Below are positions 2,329 to 63,087 of a stretch of 64,000 bases of DNA, piece after piece; the first letter of the stretch is position 1, and each line of letters opens with the position of its first letter. The translations under genes were made by a program, and so were the position numbers. Location of the stretch: the NCBI GenBank assembly GCA_965231825.1, contig OZ246889.1:4531692-4595691 (forward strand), given 5' to 3'. This DNA is from Acidobacteriota bacterium. Its GTDB lineage: Bacteria > Acidobacteriota > UBA6911 > RPQK01 > JAJDTT01. The notes under the pieces were generated by a model. The model searched no databases. It was not told the origin of the DNA and saw nothing but the letters and a program-made list of their open reading frames with translations.

Positions 2329-3663
2329 TCAGTCCGCCGCCCGTATCACCCGCACACCGCCGGATGGAGCGAATGTAATGCCGCGCCGCACCACCCGAAC
2401 CGAGTGGCGACGGTCCAACCGCAGGGCCACGCGCGACAACACGCGGGCCAGTACGATCTTCATCTCATAGCTGGCGAACGCTGCTCCGAGACAGTAGCGC
2501 ACACCGCCGCCAAACGGGAAAAACGTATAAGGATCGACCCGGCGCCCCACAAACCGGTCGGGGTTGAACGCCTCGGGCTCAGGCCACAATTCTGGTTAGC
2601 GGTGGGTGAGGTAGATGCATGGCGCCACGATACTGCCAGCCGGCAATTCATAGTTTCCGATGGACGTGTCCGTTGCCAGATGGCGGACGGCGATGGGCAA
2701 GACCGGATTGAGGCGAGCCGTCTCCTTGATGACGGAGTCCAGGTAGCTGAGTCCGGCGATCTGCTCCGCTGTCGGCCTGCACGCTTGCAGTCCGTTCCCG
2801 GTCACTGACGCCACTTCGGCGCGGGCCCTGGCCAGGACCTGCGGGTTCTGCAACAAGCGGTAGATTGCCCACGCCAGCGAGGTGGCCGCCGTTTCGTGCC
2901 CGGCCACCAGCATGGTGATGATTTCATCCCGGATTTCCTCGTCACTCATGGGGCGGCCATCTTCGTCGCGCGCGGCGACCAGCATGGCCAGGATGTCGGT
3001 CCGTTCCTCTTGCGTTGACTCTTTGCAACGGGCGATCTGGTCGAACAAAAACCGGTCGATGTGGCGCTGTTGATTGTGGCGAAGTTGGATATGGCGGGGT
3101 TGGATAAGGCCGGCCCAGGTCGTGAGCGGCCCCGAGATGAAGTTCAACCAGCGGATCACTCGCGTGCGCAACTCCGACAGTGGCGCACCATCATCCACGC
3201 CGAAAACGGTGCGCAGAATGATTTCCAGGGTGATTTCCTGCAGATGCGAGTGAACCGGGAAAGACGTTTCGAAGGGCCAGGAATCGATCGATCGATCGGC
3301 AATCTCGTACATCATGTCGCCGTACAGACGCATGCGTTCCCCGTGGAACGGCGGCATCAGCAACTTGCGTTCCCGTTTGTGCCGGGCGCCGTCGAGCACC
3401 AATATCGAGTTGGGGCCCAGGACGTGTTCCAGGCCCACCCTGTTGGCCTGTCCGGCCCGCAGGCGTTCGGGGTCGCCGGAAAAGACTTGCTTGACGGCTG
3501 CGGGATCGCTGAAAAAGGCGATCGGGGGAGCGCCGATCAGGCGGAGGGTGAAAGCGTCTCCGTAGGCCTCGGCACATTTCCGCAGGAATGGAACGGGCCG
3601 AAAGATCCATTGGCACATCTGGAAGAAGCGGGGGACTCGCGGTCCAGGCGGCAACTCGGGCAT
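2329..3663 (-). pseudogene. cytochrome P450 interrupted by one in-frame TAA (2596-2598)
   Basis: ORFs 2596..3663 (355 aa) and 2329..2589 (86 aa) are in the same frame (1335 nt = 445 codons). The junction reads ...YLTHR-TAA-PELWPEPEAFNPDRF, followed by the heme loop FPFGGGVRYCLG. This is the canonical P450 layout with a stop where D/E normally sits. Confidence 0.85.
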
Positions 3664-5526: not shown

Positions 5527-5625
5527 GAGCGGCGATCTCCTAGTCGCCGACAGGAGCGGCGGTTTCCAACCGCCGAGTTCCGAACGAAGCACGGGGGAAT
5601 GGGCGACTGGAAGTCGCCCCTCCAA
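5526..5625. repeat. REP-like three-hairpin element (type A) between convergent genes
   Basis: Hairpins are CGGCGA-TCTCCTAG-TCGCCG (5530-5549), CGGCGGTT-TCC-AACCGCCG (5557-5575) and GGGCGAC-TGGAA-GTCGCCC (5601-5619). The same order and orientation recur at 21004-21108. The element lies between the pckA stop and the stop of the minus-strand NHL gene. Confidence 0.75.
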
Positions 5626-21003: not shown

Positions 21004-21108
21004 GGAGCGGCGATTTCTAATCGCCGAACTGGAGCGGCGGTTTCCTAACCGCCGGACTCCGGCGTAAACATTTGGCGGTGAGAAATGGGCGATTGGAAGT
21101 CGCCCCTC
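21004..21108. repeat. REP-like three-hairpin element (type A), second copy
   Basis: Hairpins are CGGCGATT-TCTA-ATCGCCG (21008-21026), CGGCGGTT-TCCT-AACCGCCG (21035-21054) and GGGCGA(T)-TGGAA-GTCGCCC (21087-21105). The element is collinear with 5526-5625 and starts right after the TAA stop at 21000. Confidence 0.75.
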
Positions 21109-31186: not shown

Positions 31187-31215
31187 AGAGTCGGCGGTTG
31201 GAAACCGCCGCTCCC
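31187..31215. repeat. REP-like hairpin module (type B, single hairpin)
   Basis: AGAGT-CGGCGGTT-GGA-AACCGCCG-CTCCC lies 33 nt after the transporter stop. It has the same AGAGTC...GCTCCC frame as 32624-32679 and 34291-34349. Confidence 0.7.
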
Positions 31216-34290: not shown

Positions 34291-34349
34291 AGAGTCGGCG
34301 ACAAGAAAGTCGCCTTTCCCATTCGGCGGCAAGAAAGCCGCCGCTCCCC
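34291..34349. repeat. REP-like two-hairpin module (type B)
   Basis: AGAGT-CGGCGAC-AAGAAA-GTCGCC-TTTCCCATT-CGGCGGC-AAGAAA-GCCGCCG-CTCCCC lies 14 nt downstream of the ggt stop (minus strand). It is collinear with 32624-32679. Confidence 0.75.
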
Positions 34350-41050: not shown

Positions 41051-41179
41051 AGGAGGAGTGATTTTTAGTCGCCCGTTCGATTGGAAGACGCTGCGCGGAG
41101 TGGGGACTCCGTCCCCCCAAGACCCCCCTAATCGGCGCCTGAAAGACGCCGCTCCTGGCGACAAGAAAGTCGCCGCTCC
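41051..41179. repeat. composite REP-like element (type C), single copy, reverse orientation relative to the 43980-44716 array
   Basis: Aligns to the reverse complement of the 124-bp unit: ...GAAGACGCTGCGCGGAGT-GGGGAC-TCC-GTCCCC-CCAAGACCCCCC...CGGCG-CCTGAAAGA-CGCCG-CTCC, plus GGCGAC-AAGAAA-GTCGCC. Confidence 0.7.
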
Positions 41180-42517: not shown

Positions 42518-42622
42518 CGCGGCTACAAGACGGGCGGGGTTCGACATCCCCGGTGGGACCGGGTTATCCTTTCGCGGGTTTGTGATTCCGGCGTTTTAGA
42601 AAATCAGTGTGAGGAGAGATTC

Positions 42623-43954
42623 ATGACTCAGAGCGTTGCCACGATAACGGAGAGTTTTCGAGCCCGGACGGCTCGGTCGCGCGAACTGTACGAGGGAGGG
42701 ACCTCGTACACGGCGGGTCCGGCCAAGGGGGCCTACTACTACCGTCCCTATCCTCTCACCATGGACCGGGGAGAGGGCACCCGTCTCTGGGACGTGGACG
42801 GGAATGAATACCTGGATTGCGCCAATCACCACACGGCACAGGTGCTCGGGCACAACCATCCTCGAGTGATGGAGGCCGTCTACGCCCAGATTCCCAGGGG
42901 CTTGGCCGTGGGCGCTCCCATGGGGACGGAAGCCCCCATCGCCGAGGAGATGTGCCGAAGGGTCGACTCCCTGGACCGGATCCGCTTCGTCAATTCGGGA
43001 ACCGAAGCCACCCTGCACGCGATTCGGCTGGCTCGCGGATTTACCGGGAAGACGAAGATCGCCAAGTTCGAAGGGGGCTATCACGGCAGTCATGATGCGG
43101 TGGAGGTCAGTGTCGCGCCGCCTCTGGCCAAGGCGGGTCCGGCCCATGCGCCCAACTCCGTTCCGGGGGCGGGAGGAAGTTCCCCCAGCGTGGCCGACGA
43201 GGTCGTAATCCTGCCCTACAACGACGAAGAGGCGGTGGAACGGCTCATCCTGGAGAACCGGGAAGATCTGGCCTGCGTCATTTTCGATCCCAAGTGCGGG
43301 ATCCTGCGCATCCGCCCCGAATTTGCCCAGGCGGTCCGACGGATCACCCGGGAGAACGGCGTCCTCCTCATCTTTGACGAGATCGTCGCTTTCCGCTCGG
43401 CTCCGGGAGGACTCCAGGCCGTATTCGGCATCGACCCCGACCTGACCTGCTTCGGGAAGATCGTGGGAGGCGGCTTCCCCGTCGGAGCTTTCGGCGGAAG
43501 AGCCGACCTGATGGATCTCCTGGACAGCAGCAAGCCCGGGACCGGGTTTTCCCAGAGTGGGACCTTCAGCGCCCATCCCCTGGCCATGGCGGCCGGCCTG
43601 GCGATGCTCCAGGAACTGACACGCGAAGCCTGCGATCATCTGAACCGGCTCGGGGACCGGCTCACCAACGGCCTCAACCGGATGTTCGCCCGCCAAGGCA
43701 TCGTCGCCCAGGCCGTGAATACGGGCTCCGTCTTCAGCATCTACTTCGGCGACCACGAACTGCGGAACTACCGCGACCTGGCCGCCCTCGACAGCTCACT
43801 CGTGGCCCCCACCTTCCTGGCGCTGCTGGAAGAGGGGTACTTCCTGGGTCACACGCTGGGCATGTGCGCCCTCTCGGTGCCCATGACCGACGACGACATT
43901 GACGGACTCATCGAAGCGACCGGCCGCGCCATCGCCCGAGCCCAAGCCGAATAG
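42623..43954 (+). CDS. class-III (PLP-dependent) aminotransferase / aminomutase family protein
   Basis: 443-aa ORF with GAGGAGAG upstream. DVDGNEYLDC...NSGTEATLHAIRLAR...FDEIV.FR...GKI.GGGFP are class-III aminotransferase motifs (PLP Lys in GKIVGGG). Confidence 0.85.
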   Translation: MTQSVATITESFRARTARSRELYEGGTSYTAGPAKGAYYYRPYPLTMDRGEGTRLWDVDGNEYLDCANHHTAQVLGHNHPRVMEAVYAQIPRGLAVGAPMGTEAPIAEEMCRRVDSLDRIRFVNSGTEATLHAIRLARGFTGKTKIAKFEGGYHGSHDAVEVSVAPPLAKAGPAHAPNSVPGAGGSSPSVADEVVILPYNDEEAVERLILENREDLACVIFDPKCGILRIRPEFAQAVRRITRENGVLLIFDEIVAFRSAPGGLQAVFGIDPDLTCFGKIVGGGFPVGAFGGRADLMDLLDSSKPGTGFSQSGTFSAHPLAMAAGLAMLQELTREACDHLNRLGDRLTNGLNRMFARQGIVAQAVNTGSVFSIYFGDHELRNYRDLAALDSSLVAPTFLALLEEGYFLGHTLGMCALSVPMTDDDIDGLIEATGRAIARAQAE

Positions 43955-43979
43955 AAGCGACTTCCTTGCCGCCGAATGG

Positions 43980-44716
43980 GAGCGGCGGCATCCCTGCCGC
44001 CGACAGGGGGGTCTTGGGGGGAACGGCAGTCCCCACTCCGCGTAGCGTCTTCCCAATAGCCGAATCGAACAACGGGCGATTGGAAATCGCCCCTCCCCTC
44101 AGCGGAGCGGCGGCATCCCTGCCGCCGACAGGGGGGTCTTGGGGGGACGGCAGTCCCCACTCCGCGTAGCGTCTTCCCAATAGCCGAATCGAACAACGGG
44201 CGATTGGAAATCGCCCCTCCCCTCAGCGGAGCGGCGGCATCCCTGCCGCCGGCAGGGGGGTCTTGGGGGGAACGGCAGTCCCCACCCCGCGTAGCGTCTT
44301 CCCAATAGCCGAATCGAACAACGGGCGACCAAAAATCGCCCCTCCCCTCAGCGGAGCGGCGGCATCCTTGCCGCCGACAGGGGGGTCTTGGGGGGACGGC
44401 AGTCCCCACTCCGCGTAGCGTCTTCCCAATAGCCGAATCGAACAACGGGCGATTGGAAATCGCCCCTCCCCTCAGCGGAGCGGCGGCATCCCTGCCGCCG
44501 GCAGGGGGGTCTTGGGGGGACGGCAGTCCCCACCCCGCGTAGCGTCTTCCCAATAGCCGAATCGAACAACGGGCGACTAAAAATCGCCCCTCCCCTCAGC
44601 GGAGCGGCGGCATCCTTGCCGCCGGCAGGGGGGTCTTGGGGGGACGGCAGTCCCCACTCCGCGTAGCGTCTTCCCAATAGCCGAATCGAACAACGGGCGA
44701 CTAAAAATCGCCCCTC
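43980..44716. repeat. tandem array: 6 head-to-tail copies of a 124-125 bp three-hairpin unit (type C)
   Basis: Unit starts are at 43980, 44105, 44229, 44354, 44478 and 44602. The last copy is truncated where it meets the TAG stop at 44717-44719. Unit sequence: GAGCGGCGGCATCCCTGCCGCCGACAGGGGGGTCTTGGGGGGACGGCAGTCCCCACTCCGCGTAGCGTCTTCCCAATAGCCGAATCGAACAACGGGCGATTGGAAATCGCCCCTCCCCTCAGCG. Confidence 0.95.
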
Positions 44717-45760
44717 CTATCCGCTATTGACCACGGTATTCCGATCCTCTCCCTGCAGCGGCAGCTCGACCCAGGCGCCGGAGCGCGCGTGGGAGAGGTG
44801 AAACCCGGCAATCGCTTCCAACGTCTCGACCGCTTCCACAGCCGGATAGGGAAAAGACGCGGTCCCCTCCATCCAATCCACGATCTCACAGACCGCCACG
44901 TCCATCGACGTGGCTTGAGCCCGGGGACTGGGCCATTCCTCGCTACGACCGTCCCAGTACTCCATCCGCACCTCCTCACCTCCCGTGGTGGCCCGACCCT
45001 CGGTGCCATTGAAGCCGATTACCATGGGAACCCGGGCGTAGTCGGCGGCGTCCACGGTCGTCATCAGTCCCCCTTCCAACCGCATCACACCCCATCCTCC
45101 CGGATCCTGAAACGCCGGTCCCCGGCAGTCCGGCTTCCCGGCCAGATCCAGCGTCCCCGAAACCGCCTCCACCCGGCGGCCGGTGATAAGCCGGATGGCG
45201 TCCAAGACATGGGTCCCCACGTTTCCCAGGCGCCCGGAGCTCCACTGGGCCGTCACCGAAGTCAACTCACCCAGACCCCCGGCGGCGATATGGTCCCGCA
45301 GTCTCCGATAATTGGGATTGAACCGCCGGTTGTGGTTGATGGCCAGCAACGACCCGGCTTCGTCGCAGGCCTCCACCATGTCGTGACCGTCGGCCGCGGT
45401 GTTGGCGATGGGTTTCTCGCAGAAAATGGCCCGGACCCCCTGCCGTGCAGAGGCCACCGTCATCTCCTTGTGAACCGGGGTATAGGTGGCGACACTCACG
45501 ATGTCGGGCTTCTCCTGCTCCAGCATCTCCCGCCAGTCCGCATACGTCCCGATCCCGGTCCGTTGGGTGAATCGTTCCCGGCGTCCCAAATCCCGGCTGC
45601 TCCCGGCCACCACCTCGACCCGCGGATGATTGGCCAAGGCTTCGATGTGGGTCCCGTCCAGGTCCACCACCAGCTGACCCAACGCGTCTCCGGAAACCTG
45701 GTCCGCGCCGCCGATGTAGCCCAGACCCATGATCACTGCCCGATGCGATTGATTCGTCAT
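44717..45760 (-). CDS. Gfo/Idh/MocA family oxidoreductase
   Basis: Start moved to ATG 45760 (MTNQSHRAVIMGLGYIGG). The CEKPIA motif is present. Confidence 0.85.
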   Translation of the reverse strand: MTNQSHRAVIMGLGYIGGADQVSGDALGQLVVDLDGTHIEALANHPRVEVVAGSSRDLGRRERFTQRTGIGTYADWREMLEQEKPDIVSVATYTPVHKEMTVASARQGVRAIFCEKPIANTAADGHDMVEACDEAGSLLAINHNRRFNPNYRRLRDHIAAGGLGELTSVTAQWSSGRLGNVGTHVLDAIRLITGRRVEAVSGTLDLAGKPDCRGPAFQDPGGWGVMRLEGGLMTTVDAADYARVPMVIGFNGTEGRATTGGEEVRMEYWDGRSEEWPSPRAQATSMDVAVCEIVDWMEGTASFPYPAVEAVETLEAIAGFHLSHARSGAWVELPLQGEDRNTVVNSG

Positions 45761-45991
45761 TCGTTTCACTCCCAAATAGTTGTCTTACAGTTGTCCAAAC
45801 CGGCCTCAAGATACCGCAAAACGAGGAGGGAGGAGCGGTTGGCCGGTTCTCACTTTTTCTCCCTCTGGTTATGATGGGACGTTCCATCGACAACAATTCG
45901 TCGATCGACTTGGAAACACTTGTGGAATGCCGGTGGGTTCCCTGTCGATCGCCTGTGGATTCCCTGTGAATCCGCGACTGGAGGGATTTCC

Positions 45992-47872
45992 ATGACGGCA
46001 CAACGAACCTGGTTGCCGGTGGCTGCGGCCGCCCTCGCCATCGGATTGACTCTCACCTCCCATGCCCGGCCCCCCGAAGGCCCGATTCAGGTCCGGATCT
46101 GGAAGAACGTCATGGTGCCGATGCGAGACGGCGTCCGCCTGGCCACCGACGTCTACCTGCCCAACGGCGAGACCACGCCTCCCGGTCCCTTCCCCACCAT
46201 CCTCATTCGGCACCCCTACGGGAAGATCAGGTCGGGCGCGACCGGCGAGTTCTTCACCACCCACGGCTACGCGGTGGCGATCCAGGACACTCGTGGCCGA
46301 TACGACTCGGAGGGGGAATTCTACATCTACGTCAACGAGGGCGAGGACGGATACGACGCCGTGGAATGGATCGCCGCCCAATCCTGGTCCAACGGCGACG
46401 TGGGGACCTACGGTGGATCCTACGGGGCCGCCTGCCAGAACGCTCTGGCGGCCCTGAGACCGCCTCACCTGAGGACCATGTTCGCCTACGTGGGCACCTC
46501 CAACTACATCGAGGACGGAGCGGGCCGAGGGGGCGCATTCGCCTTGCTGCACAACATGGCCTACGGGTTCCGCCTGGCGCAGTTGGGAAAGGAGGCCCAG
46601 TCCGCCGAACCCGACCAGGAGGAGGAAACTCCCACCCGCCTGGCCCTGAACCGGGCCAACGAGCAACTGGCGAACTGGCTCATGCGGGCGCCCCTCAAGT
46701 CCACCTCGCCGTTGTCCTGGGCGCCCTCCTACGCCAAGTGGTACGCCGACTGGCGGGCGCATCCCACCTACGACGCCTATTGGAAGCAGAACGGCTACAA
46801 CTTCGAGGAGCGCTACGCCCAATACCCGGACATCCCCATCTGCTTCATCGGCGGCTGGTACGACATCTTCAAGCGCGGGACCCTGAAGAACTTCCAGGGC
46901 CTGTCAGGCCGGCAGGGTTACGTCCATCTGGAGGTGGGACCCTGGACCCACTCCACCGGCCGCACCTACGCCGGGGACGTGGACTTCGGTCCGGAGGTGA
47001 AGATGACGCTCAAGAAGAAGGCGGTGAAATGGTTCGACCAGTTCCTCAAGGGAAAGGACCTGGGCTTGGAGCAGCAGCCTCCAGTCAAGTATTTCGTCAT
47101 GGGCGCCAAAGAGTCGAAGCGCAACGAAAAAGGGAGGCTCCAGAGCGGTGGCGCCTGGAAGAGCTCCGAGGCATGGCCCCCTGCAGGGAGCCGGCAACTG
47201 CGTCTTTATCTGCACGGCGACGGCAGCCTTCGCCGCGAGCCGCCTGGCGAACCGGGTACAAGCGGGTTCGAATACGATCCCAGGCGACCGGTGCCCACCA
47301 TCGGCGGCAACATCGACTCGGGTAAGCAACTGGTGCGCCGCGGCGCTCACAACCAGACCCCCATCGAGGGAGAATTCGCGGCCACGGACCTGCTGCCCCT
47401 CTCTTCCCGCTCCGACGTGCTCTCCTTCCAAACGCCGCCCCTCGAGGAGGACCTGGAGATCGCCGGTCCCATGCGGGTGGAGCTCCGGGTCTCCTCCACG
47501 GCCAAGGACACCGACTTCACGGCCAAGCTCATGGACGTCTATCCGCCCTCTACCGACTATCCGGAGGGGTACGCCATGAACCTGGAGGACGGCATCCTCA
47601 GGATGCGCTTCCGGGAATCTCGGGAACGGGAGCACCTCATGGAGCCGGGCACCGTCTACCGGATCGAAATCGACCTCTGGGACACGGCCAATCGTTTCCA
47701 CAAGGGACACCGGGTCCGCCTGGACATCTCCAGCAGCAACTTCCCCTTCTATGACGTCAACCCCAATACCGGAGAGTTTCTGGGACGCCACACCCATATG
47801 AAGACCGCAGTGAACACGGTCTACCATGCGCCCGATGGAGCTTCGGCGCTGATCCTGACCGTGCCGGAATAG
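45992..47872 (+). CDS. CocE/NonD family hydrolase (X-Pro dipeptidyl-peptidase S15-like), secreted
   Basis: Start moved to ATG 45992, which has GGAGGGA upstream and gives a signal peptide MTAQRTWLPVAAAALAIGLTLTSHA. RDGVRLATDVYLP...RGRYDSEGEF...DGYDAVEWIA...GGSYGA nucleophile region. Confidence 0.85.
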   Translation: MTAQRTWLPVAAAALAIGLTLTSHARPPEGPIQVRIWKNVMVPMRDGVRLATDVYLPNGETTPPGPFPTILIRHPYGKIRSGATGEFFTTHGYAVAIQDTRGRYDSEGEFYIYVNEGEDGYDAVEWIAAQSWSNGDVGTYGGSYGAACQNALAALRPPHLRTMFAYVGTSNYIEDGAGRGGAFALLHNMAYGFRLAQLGKEAQSAEPDQEEETPTRLALNRANEQLANWLMRAPLKSTSPLSWAPSYAKWYADWRAHPTYDAYWKQNGYNFEERYAQYPDIPICFIGGWYDIFKRGTLKNFQGLSGRQGYVHLEVGPWTHSTGRTYAGDVDFGPEVKMTLKKKAVKWFDQFLKGKDLGLEQQPPVKYFVMGAKESKRNEKGRLQSGGAWKSSEAWPPAGSRQLRLYLHGDGSLRREPPGEPGTSGFEYDPRRPVPTIGGNIDSGKQLVRRGAHNQTPIEGEFAATDLLPLSSRSDVLSFQTPPLEEDLEIAGPMRVELRVSSTAKDTDFTAKLMDVYPPSTDYPEGYAMNLEDGILRMRFRESREREHLMEPGTVYRIEIDLWDTANRFHKGHRVRLDISSSNFPFYDVNPNTGEFLGRHTHMKTAVNTVYHAPDGASALILTVPE

Positions 47873-47990
47873 CCGCACAGCCTCCGGCAAGCGGCCCGGT
47901 GCAGAGCCGAAGTGTTACAATCTGCGGGCCGGCGAAACCGGGATCACGCCGGCCACGGCACATTCCACGAAGTTGCGGAGAAAAGGACCC

Positions 47991-48389
47991 ATGCGAAGAT
48001 TCACGATTCGACTCGTCCTGAGCCTGTTCGGCAGCGGCCTGCTCCTGTTGGCCGCCGGCACCCACGACTGGGAGGCCCCCGAAGAGGCCAAGAAGATGAA
48101 GAACCCCCACGCGTCCACCGACGAAGCCATGACCCTGGCCAGGACCCAATACGACGAGAACTGCAAGTTCTGCCACGGTGAGACCGGCGGGGCGGATGGT
48201 CCGGTGGCGGGAATGCTCAAAGAAAAGCCCCCTTCGTTCAAAGATGCCGAAGTCATGGCCAAGGTCACCGACGGTGAACTCTTCTGGAAGATCACCAACG
48301 GAAAAGACCCCATGCCCGGCTACCAGAAGAAGCTCTCCGACGAGGAGCGGTGGCAACTGGTGAACCTCATCCGAACCTTCAACAAATGA
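47991..48389 (+). CDS. monoheme c-type cytochrome (class I), secreted
   Basis: Start moved to ATG 47991 (signal MRRFTIRLVLSLFGSGLLLLAAG). It has a single CKFCHG heme motif, and PMPGY supplies the distal Met. The stop overlaps the next start (ATGA). Confidence 0.8.
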   Translation: MRRFTIRLVLSLFGSGLLLLAAGTHDWEAPEEAKKMKNPHASTDEAMTLARTQYDENCKFCHGETGGADGPVAGMLKEKPPSFKDAEVMAKVTDGELFWKITNGKDPMPGYQKKLSDEERWQLVNLIRTFNK

Positions 48390-50287
48390 ACCGCCCGTTC
48401 GGGATGAAGGTCCCCATCGACCGCCGTCACTTTCTGAAGACGAGTTCCGCGCTGGCCGCCGTATGGAGCGCCTGCGCACCCGCCAGGCAAGCTGTGGACC
48501 CGGCCGCCCGGGAATGGCAGCACTATGGCGGAGACGCCGGCGCCGGCCGCTACTCGCCCCTCGACCAGATCAACCGGACCAACGTCTCCGAGCTGAAGGT
48601 GGCCTGGACCTACCGGACCGGGGACGCCCTCCAGCGTCCGTCCACCACCATCGAGTGCACACCCATCGTGGTGGACGGCCGCATGTACGTCTCCACCGCC
48701 ACACTTCAGGTGCACGCGCTGGATGCGGCCACAGGCCGGAAACTCTGGAGCTTCGACCCCCACGGCGGGAAGCCGCTGCGGGGTTCCCCCGGGGTCAACC
48801 GGGGAGTCACCTACTGGCAGAACCCGGACCGGGCCGACGACCGCCGTATCTTCATGCCGGTCAGGGACATGCTCTATTCCATCGACGCCGGGACCGGGAA
48901 GCTGACTCCCGGATTCGGCCAGGACGGAGTCATCGACCTGAAGGAAGACTTCGACCACGAAATGACCGGACTCTCCTTCAACTTGACCAGTCCGGTGGTG
49001 GCGTACCAGGGCCTGATCATTGTGGGAGGCGGCGGCGCGGAGGGACCCTATCCGGAGGCGCCGGGCCACATCCGCGGCTACGACGCCGCCACCGGCGAGC
49101 GGCGCTGGATCTTCCACACCACCCCTCGTCCCGGCCAGTTCGGAAACGACACCTGGGAGGGTGACTCGTGGAAGACCACGGGCGGGACCAACAACTGGGG
49201 CGGCATGAGCCTGGATCCGGCACGGGGCTGGGTCTTCGCCTCCATCGGCTCGCCCGCCTTCGACTTCTACGGGGGCAACCGCAAGGGGGCCAATCTCTTC
49301 GGCAACTGCGTCCTGGCGCTGGACGCCTCCACCGGGGAGCGGAAATGGCACTTCCAGACCGTCCACCACGACGTTTGGGACTACGACCTTCCGTGCCAGC
49401 CGGCCCTGATCAACATGACCCAGGGCGGAAGGACCTTCGAGGCGGTGGTCCAGCCCACCAAGATGGGGATGGTCTTCTTCTTCGATCGGGAGACGGGCAA
49501 ACCGGTCTTCCCTGTGGAAGAGCGGCCCATGCCCGCCTCGGACGTTCCGGGCGAGGAGCTGTGGCCGACCCAGCCCTTCCCCGTGAAGCCCCCGCCCCTG
49601 AGCCGGCAGGGGTTCATGCCGGACCAGATCACCGACATCTCTCCCGAAGCCCACGCCCACGTCAAGGAGATCTACGACCGCTCCCGCGTCGGGGCCCTCT
49701 ACACTCCGCCCAGCCTCCAGGGGACCATCATCCATCCCGGTTTCCGGGGCGGCGCCCTCTGGGGAGGATGCAGCCACGACCCGGCGGCCAACCGGCTCTT
49801 CGTCAACACCAGCGAATGGACCAACCGCATCACGCTGGCGCCGGCCAAGGAGGATCAGCCCTTCGACTACGCCCTTCCGGAACGCGCCCTGTTGCAGGAC
49901 CCGGAGAAATACCCGGCCATCAAGCCCCCGTGGGGCTACCTGACGGCCATCGATCTGGACTCGGGGGATTTCGCCTGGCGGGTGGTGGCGGGAGAGATTC
50001 CGGAGCTGGAGGCGCGTGGAATCACCGGGACGGGGAGCCCCATGCACGGTGGGACCATCGCCACGGCCGGAGGCCTGATCTTCGTGGGTGGATCCTTCGA
50101 CAAGAAGTTCCGGGCCTACGATTCCGGCAACGGGCGGGTGGTCTGGGAGCATCAATTGAACGCCGGCGGCTTCGCCACACCGTCCACCTACGAGGCGGAG
50201 GGCCGGCAGTATGTGGTCATTGCCGCCGGGGGCGGCCAGGCCGCTTCCAATTCGGGCGATGAATTCGTGGCCTTCGCGCTGGCTTGA
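48386..50287 (+). CDS. PQQ-dependent dehydrogenase (glucose/quinate-type 8-bladed propeller), Tat-exported
   Basis: Start at ATG 48386 with Tat-like DRRHFLKTSSALAAV. YSPLDQINRTNVSELKVAWTY and the repeated W-docking motifs are typical of PQQ quinoproteins. Confidence 0.85.
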   Translation: MNRPFGMKVPIDRRHFLKTSSALAAVWSACAPARQAVDPAAREWQHYGGDAGAGRYSPLDQINRTNVSELKVAWTYRTGDALQRPSTTIECTPIVVDGRMYVSTATLQVHALDAATGRKLWSFDPHGGKPLRGSPGVNRGVTYWQNPDRADDRRIFMPVRDMLYSIDAGTGKLTPGFGQDGVIDLKEDFDHEMTGLSFNLTSPVVAYQGLIIVGGGGAEGPYPEAPGHIRGYDAATGERRWIFHTTPRPGQFGNDTWEGDSWKTTGGTNNWGGMSLDPARGWVFASIGSPAFDFYGGNRKGANLFGNCVLALDASTGERKWHFQTVHHDVWDYDLPCQPALINMTQGGRTFEAVVQPTKMGMVFFFDRETGKPVFPVEERPMPASDVPGEELWPTQPFPVKPPPLSRQGFMPDQITDISPEAHAHVKEIYDRSRVGALYTPPSLQGTIIHPGFRGGALWGGCSHDPAANRLFVNTSEWTNRITLAPAKEDQPFDYALPERALLQDPEKYPAIKPPWGYLTAIDLDSGDFAWRVVAGEIPELEARGITGTGSPMHGGTIATAGGLIFVGGSFDKKFRAYDSGNGRVVWEHQLNAGGFATPSTYEAEGRQYVVIAAGGGQAASNSGDEFVAFALA

Positions 50288-50798
50288 GCCGGGTTCCCGG
50301 GGCCGGCGCCTGGGAGCCGCGGCGCTGGTTCTGGTCCTGGGCGCCCTGTCCGGGGCGGCCCGCTCGGAGGACAAGGCGCCGGAGCCTCAGCCCATCCCCT
50401 TCAGCCACAAGGTCCATGCGGCCGCGGGCTTGAAGTGTGCCTTCTGTCACCCCATCGAGGAACCGGGGTTCTCGGCGGGACTGCCCGCCGAGTCCAAGTG
50501 CATGGTCTGCCACACCGCCGTCAAGAGCGACAGTCCGGACATCCTGAAGCTGGCTAAAGCCGCCAAAGCGGGCGAGACGATCCCCTGGGTGCGGATCTAC
50601 CGGGTGCCCGACTACGTCTGGTTCTCACACGCCTTGCACGCCGTGGACGCCGAGATCGAATGCGCCGCCTGTCACGGCCCGGTGGCGACGCGGGAGGTGT
50701 TGGTGCAGGAGAAGCCGACATCGATGGAATTCTGCATGGACTGCCACGCGGCCCAAAAGGCCTCCAACGGCTGCGAAGTTTGTCACCTGCGGCAGTAG
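50259..50798 (+). CDS. pentaheme c-type cytochrome
   Basis: In-frame ATG 50259 gives signal MNSWPSRWLEPGSRGRRLGAAALVLVLGALSGAARS and overlaps the upstream gene by 29 nt. Five CxxCH motifs: CAFCH, CMVCH, CAACH, CMDCH, CEVCH. Confidence 0.75.
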   Translation: MNSWPSRWLEPGSRGRRLGAAALVLVLGALSGAARSEDKAPEPQPIPFSHKVHAAAGLKCAFCHPIEEPGFSAGLPAESKCMVCHTAVKSDSPDILKLAKAAKAGETIPWVRIYRVPDYVWFSHALHAVDAEIECAACHGPVATREVLVQEKPTSMEFCMDCHAAQKASNGCEVCHLRQ

Positions 50799-54600: not shown

Positions 54601-56373
54601 TCAGCCCCTCCGTTTGAACCAGGGCAGCCAGCCCAGAATCAGAGTCGACAGGAGCGTAACGAAGAAGGAGACCGGCAGCGGCCACATCCAGGAAACGGCC
54701 TTGAGCCGAACCAGCAGGCGGCGCGACCCCAGGGTGACCACGTCATCGGGGGCGATCACGGCGGGTGAACCGGGACGGTCGTTGACGCGGATCTCGGCAT
54801 CTTCGGTCAGACCCCGAATCGACCAGCCCTCAGGCGTCTTCTCCACGCCGGCATGCCGGGCGGACACCCCTTCTCCGGTCAGGACAAAGCGGTTGTCCTC
54901 GGGATTGGAGCCGATGGTGTTGGGCGTCTCGGGCAGAGGTTCCCACCGCGTCGGCTCCTGCCCCTCCTCCAGGACGTAGAGGAAGATGTCGGGATGGTCC
55001 TGGAACCAGTGCCCCAGGGACAGGTAGAACCCGGTCGCCAATCCAAGGAAGGCCGCCAGCACCATGGCGGCGGCGCTGGCCCGGAATCTGAGGAAGGCGG
55101 CCACGAACATCCCTCCCAGGGTCCCGATGACGTAGGCGATGATCCGGGTCGTGAGATCGAAGATGTTGCCCCGGGAGCCTTCGGGGATAGTGTTCAGGAA
55201 GAGGCAGAAGAGAACGGCGTAGATTCCGGCTGCCAAGGTAAAGAGCCGGGCCAGCCGGAGCTGGGATCTCTGAGAGAGCGGATCTTTTCGGAAGCGTCCC
55301 ACGAAGTCGACGGTCAGGACGGTGGCGACACCGTGCATGCTGGAATCCAGCGCGGCCATGGCGGTGGAGAAGAGAGCGGCCACCACCAGGCCGGCCAGGC
55401 CTCGGGGCAAGGTATGGGCGATGAAGTGGGGGAAGACCTCGTCTGGCGTCCCCGGCAACTGGGCCTTGTAGTAGGAGTAGAGGGCGATCCCGCCCAGCCC
55501 CAGCAGGATGCCGACGCTCACGTCGGCGGCCTGGTTGGCCAGGATGGAACGCCGGGCCGCGCGGAGCGACCCCGTGGCCAGGTAACGCTGCACCATGAGC
55601 TGGTCCGAGCCGCAGGTGGAGACCCACCAGACGAAGGCGTAGATGGCCATCCCGAGCACGCTGACCCGGACGTAGGGGTCCAGGCGGAAGAAAGGCTGGG
55701 GCTCATGGTCCGCCGCCAGGATGTCCTGGAGCCAGGTGATGGGGCCGGTCCCGGTGTCGAAGAAGATGTACCCGATGGTAAAGAGCAGGCCGCCGAAGAG
55801 AATGATGAACTGAACCAGGTCGGTCCACATGACCGCCCGCATGCCGCCCAGGACCGTGTAGACGACGGCGATGACGCCGACCCCTAGCACCACCCAGGTG
55901 AAGGGCAGGTCGGCCATCTTGGACATGGCAATGGCGGCAGTGTAGACGATCATCCCCATCATGGAGAGGCGGATCAGCAGGAACAGGGTCGACCCGAACA
56001 TCCGCGCGCCGAGACCGTATTGTTCTTCCAGGTACTCGTAGGCGCTGGTGAGGCGCTTGCGCATGAAGAAGGGGACGAGGATCAGGACGGCCACCGCCAC
56101 GCTGAAGGGGACGTGCATCTGCCGGCCCCAGACCCCGATGCCGTTCTTGATGAACTCGCCGGGTTCCGAGAGATAGGCGATGGTGGAGAGCAGCGAGGCG
56201 TACATGCTCAGCCCGACCACGAACCAGGGCATCTTCCGCCCGGCCAGGAAGTACTCGTCGGCCGATTTCTGCCGCTTGCTGAAGTAGTAGCCCAGGAGCA
56301 GGACGCAGGCGAAGTAGACGGCGACCACCACGTAGTCGACGGTCTGGAGGCCGTCGTAGCGGTCGATGCGCAC
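54601..56373 (-). CDS. sodium:solute symporter (SSS family) with an FHA domain inserted before the last TM helix
   Basis: The ORF-track start (56637) runs through hairpin repeats. A likely GTG start at 56373 gives VRIDRYDGLQTVDYVVVAVYF (uncertain). SSS motif ADEYFLAGRKMPWF. The FHA-like segment is TIGSNPEDNRFVLTGEGVSARHAGVEKTPEGWSIRGLTEDAEIRVNDRP...DDVVTLGSRRLLV (54709-54918), followed by a final TM. Confidence 0.8.
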   Translation of the reverse strand: MRIDRYDGLQTVDYVVVAVYFACVLLLGYYFSKRQKSADEYFLAGRKMPWFVVGLSMYASLLSTIAYLSEPGEFIKNGIGVWGRQMHVPFSVAVAVLILVPFFMRKRLTSAYEYLEEQYGLGARMFGSTLFLLIRLSMMGMIVYTAAIAMSKMADLPFTWVVLGVGVIAVVYTVLGGMRAVMWTDLVQFIILFGGLLFTIGYIFFDTGTGPITWLQDILAADHEPQPFFRLDPYVRVSVLGMAIYAFVWWVSTCGSDQLMVQRYLATGSLRAARRSILANQAADVSVGILLGLGGIALYSYYKAQLPGTPDEVFPHFIAHTLPRGLAGLVVAALFSTAMAALDSSMHGVATVLTVDFVGRFRKDPLSQRSQLRLARLFTLAAGIYAVLFCLFLNTIPEGSRGNIFDLTTRIIAYVIGTLGGMFVAAFLRFRASAAAMVLAAFLGLATGFYLSLGHWFQDHPDIFLYVLEEGQEPTRWEPLPETPNTIGSNPEDNRFVLTGEGVSARHAGVEKTPEGWSIRGLTEDAEIRVNDRPGSPAVIAPDDVVTLGSRRLLVRLKAVSWMWPLPVSFFVTLLSTLILGWLPWFKRRG

Positions 56374-56539
56374 TGGGGTCGTGGCCAGGGTCAGAAGGGG
56401 TTGAATCGGACTCTCCTCGTAGCGGAAAACGGCCGAGGCGGACGTTGCGGCGGGTGAACGATCCCCGCCGGGTCGCCTCGACTCGGGGCAGAGGTTACGC
56501 GGGCACCACGCCGTTCGCAAGTCCGGTAGGAGGGGGGAT

Positions 56540-56595
56540 GGGAGGCGACTTTCTTGTCGCCTGTTGGGAGAGGCGGCTTTCTTGCCGCCTGCTGG
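56540..56595. repeat. REP-like hairpin pair
   Basis: GGCGAC-TTTCTT-GTCGCC (56544-56561) and GGCGGC-TTTCTT-GCCGCC (56572-56589). These are the reverse complement of the AAGAAA-loop hairpins at 34291-34349. Confidence 0.75.
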
Positions 56596-57252
56596 ATTGG
56601 GTCGAGTGCAGGGGATTTCGCCCCTGCACCCTCCCACACCACCGGACGTACCGTTTTCAGTATCCGGCGGTTGGAGTCACCCGAGGTCTGACGGAACCAG
56701 GAACACCTGTTCCATCAGCGACTCGTACCGGTCCGTTCTTTCCGGGGCTTCGCCGCCAACGGGACTCGCACTCCGCCCTTCCGGCTTGACGGGTTCCACC
56801 CTTGGGCCTTCCGTGCCGGGTCCGGCGGGGATCCCACCGTCTCCCGTTTTCGGAGTTCTTTGCGCCACCATTGACGAGTCCTCCCTGAGGTCGATACGAC
56901 TCCTTCGGTCCTTCGCTCCACCGGCGCTACCCGGCTTCTTCGCTACTACGACCTCTGCTGACTTCTCAAGGGCTCTCACCCTTGAGATCTCCCCGAGTAA
57001 GGTGCTGCCTCTTTCCCCCCGGGCCGCCCGGCTCTACCTGGTGCGTCTGGATGGAGTTCGGGTTTCGCTGTTCCTCGCCAGCTCACCGCCCGCACCCGGC
57101 CTCACTGCCGGTTCGTGTTCCTGCGGTCGTGGGTTTGCCTTCCGCTTCCTTCAGCTTCACCTCACGGCTACGCCTTGCGGTTCGGCTAGGGTTGGTCCCA
57201 TCACCTCCCTTGGGATCTTTCATCCCTTAGATACAGCCCATGTCGGGCGCAC
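56596..57252 (-). mobile_element. ORF-less group II intron (candidate; 3' boundary approximate)
   Basis: The minus strand starts GUGCGCCCGACAUGGGCUG (5' consensus GUGYG, close to Ll.LtrB GUGCGCCCAGAUAGGGUG). A D3-like GGUCGUAGUAGCGAAGAAGCCGGGUAGCGCC resembles LtrB CUCGUAGUAGUCUGAGAAGGGUAACGCCC. A 34-nt D5-shaped hairpin at 56638-56671 (ACCGCCGGA-UACUG-AAAA-CGGUA-CG-UCCGGUGGU) has a 9-bp stem, a 2-nt bulge at positions 24-25 and a 5-bp stem. A D6-like hairpin follows, with an unpaired A 7 nt before ...AAU. No ORF over 60 aa is credible inside. Confidence 0.6.
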
Positions 57253-57414
57253 GAGGGGCGGCTTTCTTGCCGCCTGCTGGGAGGGGACATCCTTGTCCCC
57301 CATTCTTCATTTCGCCCGGTTGAAAGACGCTACGCGGAGTGGGGACTCCGTCCCCCCTAATCCCCCCTGTCGGCGGCAAGGATGCCGCCGCTCCCCGGCG
57401 ACAAGAAAGTCGCC
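57253..57414. repeat. REP-like hairpin cluster including one type C copy (reverse orientation)
   Basis: GGCGGC-TTTCTT-GCCGCC (57257-57274), GGGGAC-ATCCTT-GTCCCC (57283-57300), then GAAAGACGCTACGCGGAGT-GGGGAC-TCC-GTCCCC...CGGCGGCA-AGGA-TGCCGCCG and GGCGAC-AAGAAA-GTCGCC (57397-57414). Confidence 0.75.
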
Positions 57415-57493
57415 GATATTTTTGCGACGAGCGGGTGCTATGATTGGCTCCGGCTTCGGACCAAACAATTCTCCTGACTTCTTTCCGGATCCC

Positions 57494-58342
57494 ATGAAGC
57501 TCACCCGTAGAAGAGTCCTGAAGACCCTGGGAATTGGCCTGGGGGCCGGCTACGTCGGATTGAGCGGGACCTGGCTCTACGCGACGAGACTCGAGGTCAA
57601 ACGGCTCCGGCTGGAGCGGGTCCGGGTGCCGCTCCCAAGCTTGCCCAGTTCATTGGACGGTTTGCGGATCGTCCTTCTGAGCGATTTCCACCTGTTTCCC
57701 CACACGCAGATCGAACTCATCGACGCTGCCGTGGAGATGGCCAACCAGTGCCGGCCCGACCTGGCTCTTCTGGGTGGAGACTACGTCCTATCCACCGCAG
57801 AATCCATCTACGAACTGGCCCCCGCCCTGGGCCGCCTGGACGCCAAGTACGGCGTCTTCGCCGTGCTGGGCAATCACGACCACTGGAAGAACTCGGATGC
57901 GGTGATGGACGGACTGACCCGCTCCGGGATTCACGTCTTCATGAACGAAGGATTGACCCTGTCGGTCGGCCGCCAACCACTCTACCTGGCCGGCGTAGAT
58001 GATGGCTGGGTGCGGCGCCACGACTTCGAAAAGGCCCTGGCGAATCGCAACGGCGAAGATCCGACCCTGCTCCTGATGCATGAACCGGACTTCGCCGACG
58101 ACTTCCTGGCCGATGGACGGGTCCTGCTCCAACTATCGGGCCACAGCCACGGCGGTCAGGTCCGTTTCCCCTTCATCGGTTCGCCCTTCCTGCCCCCGTA
58201 CGGGCGCAAGTACGACCAGGGCCTGTACCGGGTCGGCCAGGGTTGGCTCTACACCAACGTGGGGATCGGCGTCACGGCCCCACTGCGCCTGAACTGCCCG
58301 CCGGAGGTCACCGAGGTCACGCTGGTTTCCCAGCCCATCTGA
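57494..58342 (+). CDS. metallophosphoesterase (YkuE/calcineurin-like), Tat signal
   Basis: Only the last 282 codons of ORF 56564..58342 are credible (ATG 57494). Signal MKLTRRRVLKTLGIGLGAG. Motifs LSDFH, GGDYV, GNHD and GHSHGG. Confidence 0.85.
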   Translation: MKLTRRRVLKTLGIGLGAGYVGLSGTWLYATRLEVKRLRLERVRVPLPSLPSSLDGLRIVLLSDFHLFPHTQIELIDAAVEMANQCRPDLALLGGDYVLSTAESIYELAPALGRLDAKYGVFAVLGNHDHWKNSDAVMDGLTRSGIHVFMNEGLTLSVGRQPLYLAGVDDGWVRRHDFEKALANRNGEDPTLLLMHEPDFADDFLADGRVLLQLSGHSHGGQVRFPFIGSPFLPPYGRKYDQGLYRVGQGWLYTNVGIGVTAPLRLNCPPEVTEVTLVSQPI

Positions 58343-62900: not shown

Positions 62901-63087
62901 TCTTTCGCACCAACCATGCCCCATGGCCAGGGACTGCAGGTTGCGCGGGCGGGGGTAGGAAAACCCCCGCTCCTGGAACACGCCTGTTTCTCTCAGGACC
63001 TCGCCAGCCCATGGCCGGTGGGAGATCTCCTACCTTTCTCGATCCCTCATATTCCCTCCGATTCCTGATAAAGTACTTCGAAACCTG

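Follow-up and report, generated by a model that had tools for sequence, protein, structure and literature searches.

A class C group II intron without an open reading frame behind a REP-type hairpin in an Acidobacteriota genome

A 64-kb stretch of contig OZ246889.1, from the Acidobacteriota bacterium assembly GCA_965231825.1 (the window; all intron coordinates refer to it and to its minus strand), carries a 657-nt group II intron of bacterial class C (IIC) at 57252–56596. The element has no open reading frame (ORF) for an intron-encoded protein (IEP), and it lies directly behind a hairpin of the repetitive extragenic palindromic (REP) type. It is very probably a non-autonomous deletion derivative of a 1.85-kb retroelement that needs a maturase/reverse transcriptase (RT) in trans. 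A first-pass annotation, made from the letters of the DNA, had proposed an ORF-less group II intron on this strand at these positions, and three covariance-model matches of full model length bear the proposal out.

Relatives were collected with a degenerate domain 5 (D5) pattern and one genome per species, which gave at least 115 loci (L-numbers), mostly from metagenome-assembled genomes (MAGs) of Acidobacteriota/Bryobacterales. One of the genomes, OZ253580.1, is a 6.2-Mb Acidobacteriota MAG related to the source; its locus L104 is syntenic with window positions 42609–50584 at 90–92% identity.

Ribozyme domains and boundaries

The whole window was scanned with the Rfam covariance models at gathering thresholds. 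Exactly three matches were obtained, all on the minus strand, inside the element and in the correct order. Group-II-D1D4-3 (RF02001) matched 57171–57004 with 86.6 bits (E 5.8e-16), group-II-D1D4-1 (RF01998) matched 57001–56908 with 43.6 bits, and RF00029, which covers domains 5 and 6, matched 56672–56596 with 40.5 bits (gathering score 40) over model positions 1–77, terminating exactly at the 3′ boundary drawn by the first-pass annotation. A looser scan of 56300–57600 added just one match, a weak one to RsmW (RF02809) at 57243–57408 of the minus strand, on the flanking REP hairpins upstream of the intron (22 bits vs a gathering score of 52, E 0.32). GGA-rich hairpins probably produce this match by chance.

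On the minus strand, positions 57280–56540 read as a 28-nt hairpin unit (CCAGCAGGCGGCAAGAAAGCCGCCCCUC), the 657-nt element and two further copies of the 28-nt unit. The intron begins with GUGCGCCCGACAUGGGCUG (first base 57252, GUGCG at 57252–57248), in agreement with the GUGYG start read at first, and ends in ...CUCGACCCAAU (last base 56596). Both ends follow the GUGYG/AY rule, and the same ends are found in >20 copies with unrelated flanks. A likeness of the 5′ end to that of Ll.LtrB had also been remarked on; it is generic, and the intron is IIC, not IIA. The parts of the intron are as follows (L025 is a full-length relative described below).

56596–57252, minus strand: ORF-less class C group II intron, 657 nt, from GUGCG to ...CCCAAU; three Rfam models
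57004–57171, minus strand: distal domain 1 (RF02001), with the AGGAA bulge motif at 57150–57146
56908–57001, minus strand: end of domain 1, domain 2 hairpin, J2/3 (AGCAGAGG) and domain 3 (RF01998)
56673–56906, minus strand: domain 4 stub, ~234 nt, remaining after loss of the IEP gene (alignment to L025)
56639–56670, minus strand: domain 5, 32 nt, with the CGC triad at 56669–56667, an AC bulge at 56649–56648 and an AAAA loop (RF00029 alignment)
56596–56638, minus strand: domain 6 and 3′ end, a hairpin with a CGAAAU loop (RF00029 alignment)
56602, minus strand: candidate branch-point A, unpaired, 7 nt from the 3′ end
57253 joined to 56595, minus strand: predicted exon junction, ...GCCGCCCCUC upstream and CCAGCAGG... 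downstream

The stretch that had been singled out as resembling domain 3 (D3), GGUCGUAGUAGCGAAGAAGCCGGGUAGCGCC, is present inside 56959–56907. When domains 1 to 3 (D1–D3) of 14 relatives (73–98% identical) were aligned with RNAalifold, 78 pairs were obtained, in 42 of which both partners have changed, and compensatory changes are present in the D2 and D3 helices. The resemblance goes far beyond chance, and the element is confirmed as a genuine group II intron. BLAST against plasmids found nothing beyond short stretches of distant similarity to other group II introns; it pointed to an RT-bearing Sulfobacillus intron and was of no use for classification.

Class C hallmarks

The marks of IIC introns are small size, a CGC triad in place of AGC, a shortened D5 distal stem and an AGGAA bulge near ε′; further marks are a pairing of only 3–4 bp between intron-binding site 1 (IBS1) and exon-binding site 1 (EBS1), and the lack of EBS2/IBS2, with a 5′-exon stem-loop in the place of IBS2 (Toor et al., 2006; PMC1702495). 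The ribozyme core of the window intron is ~423 nt (346 nt for D1–D3 and 77 nt for D5–D6). Its D5 has a 9-bp lower helix, a 4-bp upper helix (ACUG/CGGU) and a 2-nt deletion relative to the Rfam model, and CCGCC (56670–56666) is aligned with the model's GAGCC. The first-pass annotation had drawn this domain with 34 nt and a 5-bp upper helix. Its lower helix and 2-nt bulge stand, but the domain measures 32 nt, and the 34-nt reading adds a basal A–U pair. The distal stem is shortened by 1 bp here vs 2 bp in PMC1702495, and the 4-bp form is usual in the clade.

D5 is identical in all close copies, and the AAAA loop occurs in 91 of ~115 related D5s among the matches listed, including copies with an intact RT gene. 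Because CGC is the IIC norm (PMC1702495) and AAAA is common in related D5s, the triad and the loop, at first entered as caveats, are class marks and not defects. The AGGAA bulge lies in GCUGAAGGAAGC (57155–57144, the ε′ region of D1) and is found in the window and in 12 of the 13 other sequences of the D1–D3 alignment, the exception being L090 with AGAAA. In the window and in the relatives alike, exactly 4 nt separate the end of the stem-loop from the insertion site. The lack of an EBS2 in the window intron is only implied, on grounds of the small D1. The unpaired A that had been predicted in domain 6, 7 nt before the 3′ end, falls at 56602. These features, together with the protein of the relatives (see below), support the assignment to bacterial class C, as first suggested, and not to IIA.

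The insertion site and its recognition

The elements around and recognizing the insertion site are listed here.

57257–57274, minus strand: 5′-exon hairpin GGCGGC-AAGAAA-GCCGCC, part of REP unit 1 (57280–57253), in the place of the IBS2 of IIA/IIB introns
57253–57256, minus strand: IBS1 CCUC, last 4 nt of the 5′ exon, complementary to EBS1 GAGG
57067–57082, minus strand: EBS1 hairpin GCUG-GCGAGGAA-CAGC, with EBS1 GAGG at 57076–57073 (intron nt 177–180)
56595, minus strand: candidate IBS3, C, first nt of the 3′ exon; C at +1 in related insertions
56540–56595, minus strand: REP units 2 and 3, 28 nt each, directly 3′ of the intron

The hairpin in front of the intron had been read as GGGCGGC...GCCGCCC plus CUC. 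A hairpin is indeed present, but its stem reads GGCGGC/GCCGCC and is followed by CCUC. It belongs to a tandem array of three REP units, within which the intron is inserted. The 18-mer GGCGGCAAGAAAGCCGCC matches the 64-kb window 15 times with ≤3 mismatches vs 0.12 matches expected, and the same hairpin family is present in OZ253580.1. These counts support a dispersed, extragenic REP-like repeat; since there is no T-run on the intron strand and the hairpin does not stand behind a gene, it is not a terminator.

Within the window, 27 perfect hairpins of 6 bp precede an NCTC, and 23 of these have C as the next base. About 24 sites like that of the intron stand empty. The sole occupied site among the 27 is that at 57274–57253, where the next base is the intron's first G and the C of the 3′ exon stands at 56595. 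Examples of such hairpins are found at 5554–5622, 21005–21053, 31193–31213, 34325–34346, 41157–41178, 57372–57393 and 62951–62972. Window hairpin families with the loops AAGAAA, UGGAA, UAGAA and AGGGAU have a common tail, GCUC-C or CCUC-C, so that the REP consensus itself supplies IBS1 and the candidate IBS3. At 43980–44720 (minus strand) there are six tandem composite repeats of 124–125 nt with three hairpins each (GGGGCGA-uuuuu-GUCGCCC, GGGGAC-ugcc-GUCCCC, and GGCGGC-agggau-GCCGCC plus GCUCC). Every unit of this array ends in a potential intron target and none is occupied; the syntenic place in OZ253580.1 holds a 630-nt ORF-less intron (L104 5978–6607).

A search for EBS/IBS pairs, suggested along with the original proposal, located EBS1 GAGG, which pairs with the CCUC of the 5′ exon. 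All 20 OZ253580.1 copies listed have unrelated distal flanks, stand directly behind a hairpin plus GCUC and carry EBS1 GAGC. The hairpins are mostly GGCGRC-AAGAAA-GYCGCC; GGGGGUUGAAAACCCCC and GGGGACAAGGAUGUCCCC also occur, as does one unrelated hairpin, GGCCAUC-AGGUC-GAUGGCC. REP-type families account for 19 of the 20. The 3′ exons of these copies start with C except in L100 (T at +1), and C comes first in 75 of 76 insertions among the matches listed. CCUC precedes the window intron and L114, a 650-nt copy from a MAG of Aminicenantes, and both carry EBS1 GAGG. Between GCUC- and CCUC-associated copies a single spot in D1 shows a complementary change, namely the 8-nt loop of GCUG-GCGAGSAA-CAGC. 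Copies with the GAGC loop include L025, L033, L058 and L080, which are 94–98% identical to the window in D1.

We surveyed the loci with regular expressions and obtained 48 introns, among the matches listed, with flank and EBS1 loop both visible. In 42 of them IBS1 and EBS1 are complementary at 4/4 positions, and six pair types are represented.

IBS1 GCCA with EBS1 UGGC: 19 copies
IBS1 GCUC with EBS1 GAGC: 17 copies
IBS1 CCUA with EBS1 UAGG: 2 copies
IBS1 CCUC with EBS1 GAGG: 2 copies
IBS1 GGCU with EBS1 AGCC: 1 copy
IBS1 GCAG with EBS1 CUGC: 1 copy

The remaining six rows of the survey pair at 2 or 3 of 4 positions; two are spurious 5′-end pattern matches inside the L023 intron, and four are real pairings at 3 of 4. 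Six independent Watson–Crick 4-mers would be very unlikely to arise by chance, at about (1/256)^6. The C at +1 fits an invariant IBS3–EBS3 pair. These data support an insertion signal composed of a hairpin and 4 nt, and the idea that the REP-like hairpin serves as the homing signal, put forward at the start, agrees with the 20 copies of one genome behind hairpin plus GCUC and with the covariation of EBS1.

Two extensions of this pairing were considered and rejected. An EBS1–IBS1 helix longer than 4 bp finds no complementary bases at positions −5/−6 and in the adjoining loop, and the bases for a δ–δ′-type pairing with +1/+2 are not complementary either. At L023 ~3114–3160, in the 5′ flank of the L023 intron, EBS1 and IBS1 match at 3/4; L023 may be an insertion adjoining the remnant of another intron.

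Loss of the intron-encoded protein

A full-length, IEP-bearing relative of the kind envisaged by the first-pass annotation exists in the related genome. OZ253580.1 has two 1848-nt copies, L025 and L033, which are ~94% identical to the window intron over nt 1–552 and 93–94% identical over nt 549–657. Their domain 4 (D4) encodes an intact 409-aa IEP with a YADD motif, matching TIGR04416 (group II intron RT/maturase) with 363 bits. The closest solved structure is that of the GsI-IIC RT (6ar1, E 1.6e-133, residues 1–394), and the next ones are the group II intron RT/maturase 7uim (E 2.6e-101), which we take to be the E. rectale IIC protein, and the RT-domain structures 5hhl/5hhj. The IIA protein LtrA (8.5e-35) and the maturase/RT of 6me0 (1.2e-30), presumably the IIB protein of T. 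elongatus, are far more distant. Because the IEP is nearest to the GsI-IIC RT and far from LtrA and 6me0, the lineage is class C by protein also.

The window intron is 98.3% identical to L025 in D1–D3 (6 mismatches in 345 nt) and 97.4% identical to L033 in D5–D6 (95–97% across comparisons). The 5′ part of D4 (window 56889–56680) is only 86.5% identical to L025, far more diverged than D1–D3 or D5–D6. The D4 stub aligns to the 5′ part of L025 D4 and then to its last 27 nt. Where L025 reads ...RYESLMEQVVSADNYG...(RT)...RRYGFLIPSDLG and a stop codon, the window reads ...RYESLMEQV/FLVPSDLG and a stop codon.

56677–56715, minus strand: remnant of the IEP frame, MEQV/FLVPSDLG plus stop, 12 codons; deletion junction between 56704 and 56703

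Compared with L025-type copies, the window intron lacks 1191 nt (397 codons), and the loss is in frame. In the 630-nt family the break points differ (...GUACGA/GGCUCGAAAGAGCC/UCGGGUGA), so the window copy represents an independent ORF loss. The absence of an RT ORF, part of the original proposal, holds: a Pfam search of the D4 ORFs returned nothing. In Rfam the window copy scores 86.6, 43.6 and 40.5, and the IEP-bearing L025 scores 85.5, 44.0 and, for D5–D6, below the gathering score; the ribozyme is, to judge from its sequence, without sign of decay.

Loss of the ORF is common among the relatives. In OZ253580.1, BLAST found 15 ORF-less copies of 630–632 nt, 86–88% identical to the window intron over the full length, so that, among the matches listed, ORF-less copies outnumber the IEP-bearing ones 15 to 2. 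ORF-less copies of 630–650 nt are 84–88% identical to the window intron, again over the full length. Among the matches listed, 31 of 62 classifiable copies are ORF-less, and these fall into size classes of 630, 641, 650, 657, ~665 and ~690 nt (range 630–696) with differing break points.

Several side observations concern these relatives. ORF-less IIC derivatives of 641–696 nt occur in at least 10 genomes, also in phyla other than Acidobacteriota, as in L089 442–1106 (Chromatiales MAG), L102 (Salinibacter MAG) and L017, L018, L036, L037, L041 and L051 (Bryobacterales MAGs). A Bryobacterales lineage with EBS1 UGGC stands behind another repeated hairpin family (GCACG-n-CGUGC plus GCCA). Two OZ253580.1 copies are interrupted by ~1.8-kb insertions (L080 3627–6027 and L058 5592–3178), that of L080 encoding an IS3-like transposase (388-aa ORF, motif HSDQGAQYTS). 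Over their 5′ parts the two copies are 97% identical to the window intron, and their 3′ parts are like the 630-nt family, a mosaic that suggests recombination between intron lineages. When D4 of 24 ORF-less copies was folded jointly with RNAalifold, hardly any consensus structure emerged (−3 kcal/mol). The motif GGGUGGARCC is common to all D4 stubs, distant ones included, and may be part of the IEP-binding site. A palindromic D3 loop, considered as a means of HYER1-like dimerisation (HYERs are taken up below), is not conserved among close copies and was discarded.

Genomic context and an orthologous locus without the intron

The intron lies between divergent genes. On one side stands SSF-FHA (minus strand, start near 56373–56400), followed by PPK2 and a HEPN-like gene; on the other side a metallophosphoesterase gene (plus strand, start 57494) precedes a second SSF gene. 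In orientation the intron agrees with the SSF-FHA/ppk2 string, and it lies upstream of it, as the first reading of the DNA had it. It is placed either in the SSF-FHA leader or upstream of the SSF-FHA promoter.

An orthologous locus in a related genome, L119, was found via its 93%-identical metallophosphoesterase, and its flanking genes are 89–90% identical. The SSF-FHA/metallophosphoesterase spacer of L119 is ~230 nt long and contains REP hairpins but no intron. A base-exact empty site is not drawable, because the REP content of the L119 spacer differs. By this comparison the intron is nevertheless clearly lineage-specific.

Alternative explanations

Several results weigh against a spliced intron that is mobilised in trans. 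RF00029 clears its gathering score only narrowly (40.5 vs 40). The EBS3 partner in D1 was not located; it is not locatable because the +1 nucleotide essentially never varies. When a relative's IEP was used for a tblastn search of the 64-kb window, its last 8 codons, in the remnant inside the intron, were the sole match, and no IEP gene was found. With no IEP in the window and the remaining genome unread, the helper IEP is assumed, not seen. A scan of 56300–57750 for sigma-70 promoters gave no sites. Among the at least 115 related loci listed there is no second copy with the window's deletion junction. Metagenome scans for the junction (ATGGAACAGGTGTTCCTGGTTCC) and for a GAGG-type EBS1 24-mer gave 0 matches each. 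As the junction has been seen once, the mobility of this ORF-less form is unproven; the source genome lies outside the collections searched, so missing sister copies say little against mobility.

The alternative that best survives, possible though doubtful in our view, is that a full-length IIC intron was inserted here and had its IEP deleted in place, leaving an immobile relic that no longer splices or moves and is subject to neutral decay. The single occurrence of the junction, absent from the loci listed and from one metagenome scan, would agree with a relic, as would the lack of an IEP in the window and of a promoter-like site upstream, and the different break points of the proliferating 630-nt family. 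The ribozyme, however, is undecayed: D1–D3 is 98.3% identical to that of the autonomous relative, D5 is identical, and the Rfam scores equal or exceed those of the autonomous copy or are similar to them. Moreover, EBS1 still matches IBS1.

An unlikely explanation is that the intron is a protein-free hydrolytic endonuclease of the HYER type, acting on RNA or single-stranded DNA with a hairpin plus CCTC/C and kept for this activity. In the passages of PMC12990946 and PMC11754743 that cite Liu et al. (Science, 2024), HYERs are ORF-less IIC introns of similar size (HYER1, 637 nt) whose target recognition site (TRS) measures 6 nt, and are reported to cleave DNA and RNA sequence-specifically. The high frequency of ORF-less derivatives in the clade (31/62 classifiable copies among the matches listed) and the good conservation of the ribozyme are in its favor. 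However, covariation with the target is limited to 4 nt of the EBS1 loop, vs the 6-nt site given for HYERs in those passages, and the IEP remnants, together with an autonomous relative 94–98% identical, fit a recent parasite of that relative.

A third possibility, that the resemblance is due to chance or that the region is a structured RNA/REP composite and no intron, is effectively refuted: although the region is GC-rich and full of hairpins and a weak, spurious RsmW match covers the flank, three independent models match in the right order and spacing with E values down to 6e-16, the precise boundaries are common to >20 copies with unrelated flanks, and some relatives carry an RT in D4.

Proposed mechanism

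For the non-autonomous intron that we favor, the parent would be a 1.85-kb retroelement with a class C RT/maturase encoded in D4. The in-frame deletion of 1191 nt spared the ribozyme in its entirety, together with the 5′ part of D4 and both ends of the reading frame. As in its relatives, the intron would have arrived by reverse splicing of its RNA into single-stranded DNA 4 nt downstream of the hairpin, the insertion route of IIC introns (PMC1702495, PMC4424553), and an endonuclease-less IEP would have carried out reverse transcription after insertion. The site would be chosen by the hairpin, the 4-bp EBS1 (GAGG)/IBS1 (CCTC) pairing and the C at +1 (IBS3), and the REP consensus tail, (G/C)CTC-C, would provide both IBS1 and IBS3. 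The deletion may have preceded the insertion at this site or followed it.

The analysis shows what the intron is, to which class it belongs and where it ends, and also the deletion, the rule of targeting, the pairing of EBS1 with IBS1 and an orthologous locus free of the intron. Since the window copy has no IEP of its own, help for splicing and mobility must come in trans. We infer that the intron is transcribed and spliced in vivo, and that the maturase/RT of a full-length sibling would act in trans for efficient splicing and movement. Most bacterial ORF-less introns rely on help in trans, according to a 2015 review (PMC4424553).

Significance and comparison with known systems

If the proposal holds, a mobile ribozyme occupies 657 nt of 'intergenic' DNA in front of the SSF-FHA/PPK2 operon and escapes protein-based annotation because it has no ORF. 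ORF-less group II introns were called rare in bacteria by the 2015 review (PMC4424553); here half of the classifiable relatives among the matches listed are ORF-less, and the window copy represents a fresh, independent loss. The targeting rule is simple: a hairpin, 4 nt and a C. Compact IIC ribozymes that lack an ORF (HYERs) currently attract attention as programmable nucleases, and a well-conserved 657-nt example whose natural target and cognate RT are known could be useful. The window intron leaves the present view of group II introns unchanged.

A tentative generalization, on which we would not insist, is that the intron belongs to a REP-homing IIC clade of Acidobacteriota that has relatives in MAGs of Chromatiales and Salinibacter and in which EBS1 tracks the 4-nt tail of the host REP, the IEP has been lost repeatedly and independently, and ORF-less copies can outnumber autonomous ones. 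The EBS1/tail pairs GAGC/GCUC, GAGG/CCUC and UGGC/GCCA in the clade go with different hairpin families. If true, this would be an intron family specialised on REPs, another selfish repeat, with a parasitism of its own RT like that of short interspersed nuclear elements (SINEs). Some REP-homing intron RNAs may be natural HYER-type nucleases on REP DNA.

Class C introns and their targeting of stem-loops, attC targeting, a partial association with REPs, trans-mobilised ORF-less families and, since 2024, HYERs are already documented. Mildly new are (i) the host phylum; (ii) the consistent use of REP hairpins with EBS1 matched to their tail; (iii) the recurrent loss of the ORF; and (iv) the ORF-less majority in one genome.

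The window intron is like B.h.I1, GsI-IIC and the Eubacterium rectale IIC intron in its CGC triad, short D5, AGGAA bulge, 4-bp EBS1–IBS1 pairing, ~420-nt core and insertion after a stem-loop. Unlike the known IIC introns, it has no IEP, and its stem-loop is an intergenic REP without a T-run rather than a terminator or attC.

With HYERs, as described in the passages cited above, it shares a IIC ribozyme without a protein-coding region (657 nt vs 637 nt for HYER1). It differs from that description in that a target pairing of 4 nt is supported vs a 6-nt TRS, and in being visibly a fresh deletion of an IEP-bearing intron; on the sequence evidence we do not claim membership among the HYERs.

The ORF-less TeI3 introns of Thermosynechococcus elongatus (IIB/CL) are mobilised in trans by TeI4 IEPs (PMC2882425). 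As with TeI3, ORF-less copies coexist with close IEP-bearing ones and outnumber them (15 vs 2 in OZ253580.1). In contrast to TeI3, the introns here are IIC and not IIB, recognize a hairpin plus 4 nt instead of using EBS1, EBS2 and EBS3, and have lost the ORF several times rather than once.

In Pseudomonas putida KT2440, 2 of 9 copies of a group II intron lie at REP elements (PMC1525189). The window intron resembles the P. putida intron and the IIC-attC introns in being of the IIC type with a repeated, non-terminator palindrome as its landing site. Unlike in those systems, association with REPs is the rule here (19 of 20 near relatives), and the 4-nt tail of the repeat matches EBS1.

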